A DNA stretch of 64,000 nucleotides. It comes from Candidatus Latescibacterota bacterium. GTDB lineage: Bacteria > Latescibacterota > UBA2968 > UBA8231. The stretch spans positions 800,001 to 864,000 of the forward strand of contig CBDCXV010000011.1 of the NCBI GenBank assembly GCA_965223905.1. Reading direction: 5' to 3'. Below the pieces are notes generated by a model. The model was not told the origin of the DNA, made no database searches, and worked only from the letters and a program-made list of their open reading frames with translations. Position numbers and translations under genes: made by a program. Positions 1,883 through 5,072 of this stretch are shown one piece after another. Within the stretch, counting starts at the first letter, position 1. The number at the start of each line of letters is the position of its first letter.

Positions 1883-2526
1883 TCATGGAGGAAGACTATA
1901 GTGAAGGTCATCGTTTACTACGGATTTACGGAGGAAGAACTGCACGACATGAAGGAGATGGTCTCGCGCCATGGAGACCACGAACTGGTGCACGCCAGCA
2001 CGGACGAAGAAGCCCTGGCGGACATCACCGACGCCGAGGTTCTGATGGGTCATTTCCCCGCATCCGTAACCAGCGCCGGCAAGCGGCTCCGGTGGATCCA
2101 GTTCGTTCAGCGCCGGCATGGACAAGCTCCTGGACCCGAGTATCGTGGGGCGGGACCAAGTCGTCATCACCAACATGGCGGGGCTTGTACGCGCCACAAG
2201 GGGGTGAACACGCATGGGCCCTGCTCCTGGCCCTGGCGCGCGGGATCCTTCCTGCCGTGCAGAGCCAGATGCGCAGGGAGTGGAAGGGAGGCGCCGCGGT
2301 GGAGTTGACAGGCGGCGTGCTCGGTATCGTCGGTCTAGGCGGATTTGGGCTGGAAACCTTAAAACGAGCCGCGGGATACGACATAAAGGTCCTGGCTCTC
2401 GACCCGGTTCGCACCGAACCTCCGGTGGGCGTCGCCGAGGTCGCCCCTCCTACGAAAGAGAACCTGCATTCCATGCTCGCCCGTTCCGATGCGGTGGTGG
2501 TCGCCTGCCCGAGAACGAAGGAAACT

Positions 2527-2679
2527 TGACTCCTTCGTATAAACCCCATTTTGAGGATGTTCAGCGATTCAGCACATTAGAGCGCCACTATATATTGGCC
2601 AACGAAGACAACGCATGCACTATATGTTGTATGACAAACCGGGCATTCTGAGCGACGTAGGGTTTTTACGAGAGAATCA
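2527..2679. mobile_element. MITE (~153 bp non-autonomous element) with ~20-bp imperfect terminal inverted repeats and AACT target duplication
   Basis: Left end TGACTCCTTCGTATAAACCC; right end (reverse complement) TGATTCTCTCGTAAAAACCC (16/20 match). AACT flanks both sides (2523-2526, 2680-2683). Removing the element and one AACT restores GAA ACT TAT CAC ATG (ETYHM). It is much more AT-rich than the host gene. Confidence 0.88.
2585..2632. promoter_or_regulatory. Tandem NrdR-box-like operators inside the MITE
   Basis: ccaCTATATATTGgcc (2585-2600) and gcaCTATATGTTGtat (2617-2632) match the NrdR consensus acaCwAtATaTwGtgt at 12/16 and 13/16; offset 32 bp. Confidence 0.7.
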
Positions 2680-3026
2680 AACTTATCACATGATAGGCCG
2701 CGAAGAGTTGGCGTGCATGAAGGAAACCGCCTACCTCGTCTGCACCAGCCGCGGCGGAATAATCGACGAAGCCGCCTTGTTGGAAGCCCTAGAATCCGGC
2801 TCCATCGCCGGCGCCGGCCTCGACGTCACCGAGGCCGAGCCCTTGCCCGCCGACGATCCGCTCTGGAACGCTCCCAACCTGGTGCTTACTCCGCATCGCG
2901 CCGGCGCTTCTCAGCACCGACCGCGCAAGGTCTACGAGTTCTTCTCGACACAGCTCGAACGCTACCTCAAGGGGGAGCCGGTCCTGAACCTGGTCGACAA
3001 ACGCCTGGGATTTTGAAGGCCGGCTA

Positions 3027-4260
3027 GTGGTTCACCTATGTAGTAATGCTGGATAGAGGCGGTGCAGCTTGATGCACGCATCGTCGGTGGTGAATTGCCA
3101 TTTGACCCTCGTTGGACTCTTCTCGCGTTGGGAGAGCCAGGCGTGGACTTCTTTGCTCAGTTGCTGAATCGTGCCGATGCGCCGGTCCAGACACTGCCGG
3201 GAAAGCACCTTCAACCCGATTTCGGCCATATTGAGCCAGCTACCCCGTTTCGGGGTGAAGTGAATATCGATTTTATCGGCGATGCGTTTGGCTTCTTCGG
3301 GCGCAAAGACGTCGTACAAAGCCGCCTTCTGGTGCGAGCTCAGATTGTCCATGACCAAGGTCAGGGCATCGGCTTCCGGGTAGCAGCGATCGACCAGATC
3401 TTTTCATCACCTGAGCCCAATCTTTCTTGGTGCGGCGCTGCGTGACCTGGACTTGGCAGCGGCCGGTAAGCGGTTCCAGCATCATGAATACGGTGGCCAC
3501 GCCGTTGCGGACATAGTGATGATCATACCGAGCCGCATGTCCAGGAATCGCCGGAAGAGGGGCCCGCACCTCTCCCACCAGCTGTTTGCTCGTCTCGTCC
3601 AGGCATACCGTGGGACGGGTGGGATCGTAGGGCCGGGTATAGATATCCAGCACATCCTCCATGGCCCAAACGAATTCGGCACTGGGGGCGCCCGGCAGGC
3701 ACCACATTTCCTGCCGCCAGGGCTTCAATGCGTTTTTTTTAGCGTCTTGCGGACCGTTTCCGGGCTGACCCGGTCGACCACCTCCAACGAAACCAGGCGG
3801 TCTGCTAACAATTTGAGGGTCCAGCCCTTCCTTCCCTCCGGCGGCGGGCTACAGGCCAGCGCTACGAGACGAGCCTCGGCTTCTCCGTCGGATGGTCTTG
3901 GCCCTGCGGTTCGTCTGCTCCTTGCGTTGGAGGGCGGCCTCCAGGCCTTCTTCGACAAATCGTTTGCGCAGGCGCTCGACCGTGCTGGAATGGACCTCGA
4001 GAGCGTGCCCGATCTGTTCGTCGGTCCAGCCGTCTCCCTGCGATCCTTGATCCGTCTTCAGGAGAATGCGCGCATGCCGCTGCTTGAAAGCAGCCGCTTT
4101 CCCCTTGGAGATGAGTCCGTGCACATAGGGGCGCTCCTCCGGGGTGAGAGTGACGAGGTATCTCTTCTTGGGCAACGCCGTACTCCTTTTCCAATAAAGG
4201 GGATCGGTAAAAAGGATACGGCTGCCACTTTTATTCCGCAATTCTAAATGGATCGACCAC
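3027..4260 (-). mobile_element. IS630-family insertion sequence with both ends and TA duplication; transposase has extra frameshifts
   Basis: Ends GTGGTTCACCTATGTAGTAATGC and (reverse complement) GTGGTCGATCCATTTAGAATTGC, flanked by TA at 3025-3026 and 4261-4262. Transposase pieces: LPKKRYLVTLTPEER, WTLKLLAD, VCLDETSKQL, VMDNLSSH, FTPKRGSWLNMAEI. Confidence 0.93.
3032..4175 (-). pseudogene. IS630 transposase (split reading frames)
   Basis: TTG start at 4175 after GGAG. A8 slippery run at 3733-3740 (LKK/LKPW junction). Additional frame breaks near 3890 and 3390; DDE motifs present. Confidence 0.85.
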
Positions 4261-5072
4261 TAGGGGAGTAACCCAACCCCCGCAGGTAAGCACGGGGTCG
4301 CAGCGCTGCGCCGAGCCTCGCTGATCGGATCGTCCACTCCGGGCACCGGCTCTCCCGGGCAACTGGTGATCACGCCATCGTAGCCCAGGCCATCCAGTGT
4401 CTTGAGAACTGCGGGAAAGTCGATGTTTCCCGCGGCCCCGACGTCACACCAGACCGGATGGTAGAGACCGTCCTCACCGCGTGTGCAGGAGCTGAAATCC
4501 TGGAGGTGGACGTAGTTGAGCTGGCTCCAGAAATCCCGAATGGATGCGACGGGGTCGTAACCCCAGAGCTGGGCGTGGGAGACATCGATGCAGAGCTTGG
4601 CGTTTTGCAGGCAGCTCATGTACAGCTGCCACTGGGCGATCGAGTCCACCAGCGTGTTGGTGTGAATGTGATAGCTTACCTCCAATCCCCGGGCAGCCGC
4701 ATACTCCGCCCACTCCTCTGCACCCTCTGCGGCACGGCGGATCTCGTCATCGTCGGCCTCCCTTCCCACCGGCTTGGCGCCACTCATGAACATGAAGCAT
4801 TGGACCCCCATCTCCGCGGCGAATTCCATACGCCGGCGATTTCGCTCAACGTGCGCTGAATCCCTGTCGTCAGGCGATCCGACGGCGGTAAAGACCGTCA
4901 ACGGCATGCCTGTGTTCGCGCATACCTGCTTGAGACGGCTGGGGGTTCCGAGCCAGTCGAGCGGCAGGCGCCCTTCCCAGCTGTCCCACCCGGCTTCCCT
5001 CAGTGCGACTAAGGCAGGCTCGAGATCCGGTAACTGCCACCTGAGGGTGCTGTAGGCCATGTTGAATGACAT
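4260..5072 (-). CDS. Sugar phosphate isomerase/epimerase (xylose-isomerase-like TIM barrel)
   Basis: Motifs YHIH, LCIDVSH, YVHLQD and GNIDFPAVLKTL. Start MSFNMAY at 5072 after AGGAGAGG; the last residues may be frameshifted. Confidence 0.8.
   Translation of the reverse strand: MSFNMAYSTLRWQLPDLEPALVALREAGWDSWEGRLPLDWLGTPSRLKQVCANTGMPLTVFTAVGSPDDRDSAHVERNRRRMEFAAEMGVQCFMFMSGAKPVGREADDDEIRRAAEGAEEWAEYAAARGLEVSYHIHTNTLVDSIAQWQLYMSCLQNAKLCIDVSHAQLWGYDPVASIRDFWSQLNYVHLQDFSSCTRGEDGLYHPVWCDVGAAGNIDFPAVLKTLDGLGYDGVITSCPGEPVPGVDDPISEARRSAATPCLPAGVGLLP

Follow-up and report, generated by a model that had tools for sequence, protein, structure and literature searches.

The closest precedent for the element described here is the Correia element (Correia/NEMIS), a 155-bp MITE of Neisseria with an internal IHF site: its interior is reported to bind IHF in vitro, and in a review it is considered that IHF might facilitate its transposition (PMC2229807, PMC10969869). 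The present MITE resembles it in size and in having an internal site, here predicted, for a DNA-bending host protein. It differs from Correia/NEMIS in that this protein is a nucleotide-sensing repressor that needs two phased boxes instead of a general nucleoid protein, and in its IS1182-type ends and 6-7-bp duplications.

The repressor, NrdR, is regarded as dedicated to ribonucleotide reductase (RNR) operons, and in E. coli and P. aeruginosa paired boxes are reported only at RNR operons (10.1101/2025.03.28.645925). According to PMC9110341, NrdR binds as dATP rises when DNA synthesis slows, and with dATP and ATP bound the protein kinks the DNA by ~90 degrees at each box and turns it through 180 degrees. 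The operator rules given in PMC13584703 are that both 16-bp boxes are needed, C4 and G13 being critical and A6 and T11 important, with at least 63% A/T inside and a linker of 15-16 bp that is free in sequence; NrdR proteins are also reported there to bind foreign operators. The MITE shares with RNR-promoter operators the two 16-bp boxes with C4/A6/A8/T9/T11/G13 and the 15-16-bp linker (PMC13584703), but its sites lie away from nrd genes and have no consensus promoter.

With IS1182-family insertion sequences and their MITEs, the element has in common the domains of the partner transposase, the ends and the target preference, whereas the operator is found in the MITE only and not in the autonomous elements of that family. 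Host factors take part in the transposition of several elements, as IHF does for Tn10 and Dam for IS10 and IS50, and some elements carry LexA sites. As in the control of Tn10 and IS10/IS50, sites for a host DNA-binding protein lie inside the element, but here they are confined to a non-autonomous one. To our knowledge, NrdR is not among the host factors of transposition. A literature search, judged by titles and abstract openings, found no link between NrdR and a transposon or MITE, and NrdR does not occur in the review PMC10969869. Computational analysis of the locus confirms a real MITE with a predicted NrdR operator that conforms to the rules and is selected, and a mechanism is proposed from its sequence.

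Results

An IS1182-type element in a dehydrogenase gene

The element lies at positions 2528..2678 (plus strand) of the window, i.e., the whole stretch of 64,000 nucleotides that was analysed. It is a MITE of subfamily S1, 151 bp long and non-coding, with terminal inverted repeats in which 15 of 19 end bases match. The left repeat (2528..2546, plus strand) resembles the 3' end of an IS1182-family partner element, and the right repeat (2660..2678, minus strand) equals its 5' end in all 19 bases. A 6-bp target-site duplication (left copy 2522..2527, right copy 2679..2684) was recognised from the sequence and from empty-site contigs. In contigs of the DNA runs X2 and X6, exactly 157 bp are skipped at this locus, which indicates that the window insertion is recent and polymorphic. 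A sequence-only reading of the window had reported a MITE of 153 bp; the identification as a MITE was right, but the length is 151 bp with a 6-bp duplication. The alternative of a 153-bp element with a 4-bp duplication is excluded, since the outer duplicated base is other than T/A in two copies. Among 114 copies, the duplication is 6 bp in 77 and 7 bp in 16, and 21 copies have none; the target is a loose palindrome. The shared ends, the duplications and the empty site show that the MITE is a non-autonomous IS1182-type element, and the duplications and the polymorphic site point to a host IS1182-family transposase as the enzyme that would move it in trans.

The insertion interrupts a D-2-hydroxyacid dehydrogenase gene (1901..3016, plus strand). 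Positions 2-105 of the Pfam profile 2-Hacid_dh_C match before the MITE and positions 106-178 after it, with the break exactly at the insertion, and the orthologous genes of G001, G002 and G012 have no such interruption. In X10 and X11, RNA contigs include the host gene and not the MITE, although contigs cannot show absence; the RNA runs in which the locus occurs carry the label sponge metagenome. Single-base insertions at window positions 2102 and 2185 also shift the reading frame of the dehydrogenase gene; they are absent from the X2/X6 empty-site contigs and are thus assembly errors or decay after the insertion. By eye, IS3-like and IS630-like insertion sequences, both with broken frames, occupy positions 1-770 and 3025-4262.

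No internal sigma-70 promoter, consensus promoter or terminator was found in the MITE. A structured RNA was considered and rejected (z = -1.7; 13/200 shuffles fold equally well; no Rfam match). A conserved sub-terminal motif (2561..2575, plus strand), of which 11/15 positions are invariant in four subfamilies, ends 9 bp before box 1 in all subfamilies and is as conserved as the boxes. It matches, by eye, only 6-7 of the 9 positions of an IHF consensus, and at up to 2 mismatches it belongs to no other family of sites in the genome. HU/IHF-family genes are present in the hosts. The sequence GANTC, a common adenine-methylation site, stands at both tips of the MITE (2528-2532 and 2674-2678) and of the partner IS.

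The partner element

The autonomous IS with the same ends that the sequence-only reading had suggested looking for was found as a 2-kb element encoding a transposase with the domains DUF772, DDE_Tnp_1 and DDE_Tnp_1_6. Plasmid relatives of this transposase (26-33% identity) are annotated IS1182, and MITE and partner have a common target preference besides their common ends. The proposal that the parent IS itself carries the operator was not borne out: the own ends of related transposase loci held no NrdR pair in 30/30 cases, the sole high-scoring pair belonging to an adjacent MITE, and NrdR-type boxes were absent from the partner-element ends in G000, G002, G012, G020, G168, G170 and G171. This absence in both phyla argues against the boxes being transposase-binding sites, an objection already raised in the earlier reading, and for a need peculiar to the short element.

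The interior of the MITE was not found in any IS examined. Plasmids gave no DNA match to the MITE, and in viral contigs no transposase relative, end repeat or motif was found. MITE copies often abut another copy or an end of the partner IS, with one duplication in common (L010, L009, L008, L141, L148).

Distribution and subfamilies

The family spans Latescibacterota and Dehalococcoidia. A count of copies in the host genome, as the earlier reading had advised, gave eight S1 copies with 94-100% identity, and there is one diverged S2 copy; L087 (Latescibacterota) carries an S1 copy, and G168 holds about 40 copies. A scan pattern composed of end repeat and sub-terminal motif, with the boxes left out, detected the family in Dehalococcoidia records, where 19/22 of the matches listed were real and 3/22 chance; in the metagenomes scanned, all 13 matches to the pattern were chance, without a second end. 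With a profile model, matches were obtained in 7/76 genomes from the host's family (full-length in three, partial or decayed in the rest) and in 14/150 from a single Dehalococcoidia order, where four genomes have at least 20 candidates each. BLAST with S4 against 401 Dehalococcoidia genomes gave full copies in three and five weak matches, the two viewed being chance.

From the fetched loci, 115 elements with both ends were recovered. One decayed copy could not be typed; the other 114 were assigned to S1 (about 151 bp), S2, S3 and S4 (161 bp), S6 (161 bp, G698) and old fixed copies. Searches with the end repeat only yielded no box-less short element among those inspected (9/9 in the genome have boxes; the fetched short pairs of G168 were also viewed), whereas S6 and the remnants were found by a model containing the boxes and are not blind tests of box presence. 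Old fixed copies occur at apparently orthologous sites in the genus (L025; L177 in G002; L199 in G001; G000 C11:1008447-1008490), the last of which has lost its interior.

Do the boxes qualify as an NrdR operator

The two boxes are indeed 32 bp apart from start to start, as the sequence-only reading had claimed. Box 1 (2585..2600) has all six conserved positions and A/T at 8/8 positions between C4 and G13; box 2 (2617..2632) also has all six, with A/T at 7/8. Together with the 16-bp linker (2601..2616), the window copy follows all rules reported in PMC13584703, with C4, A6, A8, T9, T11 and G13 present, and the C4-G13 core of box 1 is that of E. coli nrdEF box 1 (PMC13584703, Table 1). The host has nrdR, the lack of which had been named as an argument against the reading, and its NrdR retains the DNA-contacting residues D15, R17 and RRRR. 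The gene lies directly upstream of the only RNR match of the genome, a class II-type gene on another contig, which agrees with the earlier remark that the window has no nrd gene. Although nrdR is present in 23/23 carrier genomes tested, its co-occurrence with the MITE says little since nrdR is reported in 77% of bacterial genomes. In the five Dehalococcoidia examined, paired boxes 31-32 bp apart are found upstream of nrdR.

The boxes were scored with weight matrices, as had been recommended, and neither matrix used any MITE sequence. Unseeded Gibbs sampling on 30 nrdJ upstream regions of the host's family gave an NrdR-type palindrome, usually with a weaker partner box 30-33 bp downstream (17/27); three of the 30 regions had no site at ≥12/16 matches and were dropped from the matrix. 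The first matrix was trained without three same-genus sites. With it, box 2 scored 17.2 bits, with 10 equally good sites in the genome, and box 1 scored 7.8 bits, with 134 equally good sites. The second matrix was built from the host nrdJ/nrdR upstream regions, same-genus sites and Dehalococcoidia pairs picked with the first matrix. It gave 24.0 bits for the window pair, a score reached in 0/2000 dinucleotide shuffles; for eight representatives, 0-1/2000 shuffles reached the observed pair scores, and for S6 7/3000. In a ranking of pairs over the 7.9-Mb genome, the eight S1 copies (23.8-25.8 bits, ranks 2-9) come directly behind the nrdJ promoter (32.0 bits), whose first rank is partly built into this matrix through the same-genus sites and matrix-picked pairs; the S2 copy scored 21.5.

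Pairs with all six positions and a 15-16-bp linker number 8 in the genome against 0.19 expected, and 7/8 are MITE copies. The host nrdJ pair does not qualify, as C4 is lacking from its second box. The only strict pair outside the MITE (G000 C10:1706580-1706627, 15-bp linker) is located ~100 bp upstream of what appears, by eye, to be a cysteine-desulfurase-like gene.

Conservation of boxes, linker and spacing

Conservation is higher for the boxes and their spacing than elsewhere in the interior, as was anticipated for a functional operator and checked here both across subfamilies and within S1. Identity to S1 in the other subfamilies is 62-69% in the boxes and 25-31% in the linker (2601..2616), of which the length is kept and the sequence is free. 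Invariant positions in four subfamilies amount to 15/32 in the boxes and 1/16 in the linker, and C4, A8, T9 and G13 are invariant at 8/8 positions vs 40/113 interior positions (hypergeometric p = 1.5e-4). Within S1, shared variants fall at 0/20 positions of the core and at 16/52 interior positions beside it (Fisher p = 0.004); the corresponding numbers for S3, 3/20 and 20/62, do not differ significantly (p = 0.16). Neutral simulation at the outside-box rate reached the observed scores in 0-6/3000 runs. Random substitution at the within-box rate did so in 0-54/3000 runs, so the changes inside the boxes are of the tolerated kind.

The best-scoring pair has a 15- or 16-bp linker in 107/114 full copies, and C4 and G13 are present in 112/114 copies for each box of the best pair; the C4 counts are taken from this set because box picking in a set of 76 copies demanded C at position 4. 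At least 5/8 A/T in both boxes was found in 76/76 copies. A6 and T11 occur in both boxes of the window copy and of 18/19 S1 copies, but fail in box 1 of S4 and in S3, the most abundant subfamily, which has G6 in both boxes and a box 1 at the 63% A/T limit. In a synthetic site, G at position 6 is reported to weaken binding 4- to 10-fold (PMC13584703). Further exceptions are linkers of 14 bp in five G170 copies and of 17 bp in S2, G at position 4 in box 2 of S6, and the loss of C4 from both boxes in one S3 copy.

Retention of C4 and G13, freedom at positions 7 and 10 and a linker fixed in length but free in sequence make up the NrdR signature described in PMC13584703. The conservation pattern indicates that the site is under selection. 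Computationally, the boxes behave as a true NrdR operator that selection on the element has maintained, and NrdR is predicted to bind to it; that it would bind the S1 operator in vitro we consider very probable.

Geometry and the LexA box

In S3, S4 and S6 (161 bp in total), the operator is exactly centred (57 + 47 + 57 bp), although the 57-bp arm is not an independent observation since the subfamilies share ancestry. Compared without gaps, S6 and S3/S4 share 4-5/15 linker bases and 12-13/38 right-arm bases (about 30%). At 45-57 bp from the tips, the boxes are too distant for the end repeats to be covered. In S1 and S2 the right arm is 45-46 bp, i.e., 11 bp or about one helical turn shorter; this difference coincides with loss of a LexA box, so that an argument from the helical turn would rest on one event.

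The 11 bases missing in S1 and S2 overlap a match to the LexA operator of the hosts themselves, which is found upstream of 12/12 lexA genes in both phyla. This putative LexA box is located 9 bp after box 2 in 87/92 S3/S4 copies. It scores 12.0-13.4 bits, compared with 12.2-16.8 for host sites, is equalled by 6-15/3000 shuffles, and differs from G168's own lexA box at 2/14 positions. S1, S2 and S6 have no LexA box; the window copy lacks it, the best S1 score being 4.5 bits with 996/3000 shuffles as good.

An SOS-like box at the same offset (+55 to +58 from the start of box 1) occurs in 4/27 nrdJ promoters of the host's family (L038, L043, L046 and L047). This suggests joint control of some Latescibacterota-family nrdJ promoters by NrdR and LexA. 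It also leads us to infer that the interior of the MITE may descend from a captured nrdJ-type operator region. An origin from joined ISL3/IS1595 ends was discarded, as no such tips were seen by eye in the flanks of the boxes.

Discussion

A MITE of 150-160 bp is near the persistence length of DNA. The mechanism that we tentatively prefer, at not quite even chances, is that NrdR loaded with dATP/ATP binds the central boxes and bends the 150-160-bp MITE in a U-turn at its centre, which would bring the ends together and gate jumps by dATP/ATP. The mobility of the MITE, unlike that of its 2-kb parent, would then follow the dATP/ATP state of the cell, and in the 161-bp subfamilies the LexA box by the right end may add an SOS gate. 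The quality of the operator, selection on the boxes and not on the linker, the centred geometry, the absence of boxes from autonomous elements and the presence of nrdR in 23/23 carriers are in favour of such a folding scaffold. Less easily accommodated are the weaker boxes of the most abundant subfamily S3, the core of which is not significantly better conserved than its neighbours (p = 0.16), the 14-bp (G170) and 17-bp (S2) linkers, G4 in box 2 of S6 and the loss of C4 in one S3 copy; a role in bending also leaves the LexA box unexplained.

In the chief alternative, bound NrdR, together with LexA in S3/S4, might act as a brake by locking the element in a shape or occupancy that the transposase cannot use, much as in the Dam control of IS10/IS50. 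Such a brake would lift in active replication (low dATP) or upon DNA damage, when a sister copy can repair the donor gap. Two repressors of DNA-metabolism genes on one element, with the LexA box in 87/92 S3/S4 copies and its variants staying within the forms of host lexA promoters, would suit this explanation, as would the weak S3 boxes, which fit easy release, and the reported binding of NrdR upon the dATP rise as DNA synthesis slows (PMC9110341). We nevertheless consider it rather unlikely, since a brake has no need for centring or for NrdR boxes far from the end repeats, S1, S2 and S6 lack the LexA box, and no operator is present in the autonomous IS, for which timing would be most useful. 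That the boxes bind another protein of NrdR-like specificity, or the transposase itself, appears improbable: the conserved features are those published for NrdR (C4/G13, free positions 7/10, linker length), and the box-less ends of the partner IS1182 element in both phyla imply that the transposase has no need of a box. Some observations do point that way, i.e., the deviation of S3 and S6 from the consensus, the second conserved motif 9 bp from box 1, and boxes in the ends of an ISL3-type element, which indicate that 16-mers of this kind occur repeatedly in transposon ends where the spacing of NrdR boxes is absent.

The sequence-only reading had raised the possibility of a regulatory cassette. 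Its copies could place new promoters under NrdR/LexA control, act there as a roadblock, or raise RNR expression by titrating NrdR. Such a service to the host receives little support, because the eight copies are dispersed, some inside and some between genes that are unrelated to one another and have no connection with nucleotide metabolism, and the MITE has no consensus promoter. In the Dehalococcoidia genomes G584 and G632, a common fixed remnant does have a consensus promoter (TTGACA, 17 bp, TATTCT) 8 bp before box 1, but the boxes of this remnant have decayed (box 1 positions 6 and 11, box 2 position 11, half of the SOS box), so it demonstrates at most that a copy can become a promoter region. 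The order and offset of box 1, box 2 and SOS-like box are those of 4/27 family nrdJ promoters, there are eight copies for the one native operator here and about 40 for one in G168, and the host's own second nrdJ box has no C4, all of which would be compatible with a service to the host. A benefit at single loci cannot, however, explain conservation across transposing subfamilies, and we judge this explanation to have only a small chance. Given this scatter of copies, the fact that transposing lineages have conserved the site suggests that the element itself benefits, and selection is probably for the element's own mobility and not for host regulation. The least probable reading by our estimate, that the boxes were left without selection from a captured nrd promoter or are AT-rich palindromes due to chance, is largely refuted by the conservation simulations (0-6/3000 neutral runs); the shuffles also speak against it (0-1/2000 for the eight representatives and 7/3000 for S6). 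The layout resembles some family nrdJ promoters, which makes capture a plausible origin, but identity in linker and right arm has fallen to nearly random levels, and boxes and spacing have been retained.

A selected operator that follows the rules, in a mobile element that crosses phyla, would mean that a paired NrdR site can have another job, and transposition would be linked to the nucleotide pool. It also gives the question of end pairing in elements near the persistence length of DNA an answer that can be tested. The wider claim, that NrdR has a second, non-transcriptional role as a nucleotide-gated bending scaffold, with the MITE family jumping only in a given dATP/ATP state and some subfamilies only after LexA cleavage, is one we put forward with reserve, as possible and somewhat doubtful. 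At 8 to about 40 copies per single native operator, any titration of host RNR control should be measurable.

Several related sites were seen elsewhere. The remnant of G584 and G632 (L353:2890-3031 and L352:4845-4990), with a promoter in place of the left arm and the right arm and end intact, sits upstream of a cadherin-domain gene. An ISL3-type element, recognised by eye in two copies (G000 C2:598825-600180 and C11:1965956-1967311), has at either end one high-scoring NrdR-type box (16-17.5 bits) that begins exactly 27 bp in from the tip, and these boxes may belong to the same scaffold theme. At G000 C11:795683-795728, ~4.3 kb before the window, two NrdR-like boxes, 30 bp apart, overlap a TTGACA promoter upstream of a gene that looks zapA-like by eye; as a single site, box 2 of this pair ranks among the genome's top 11.
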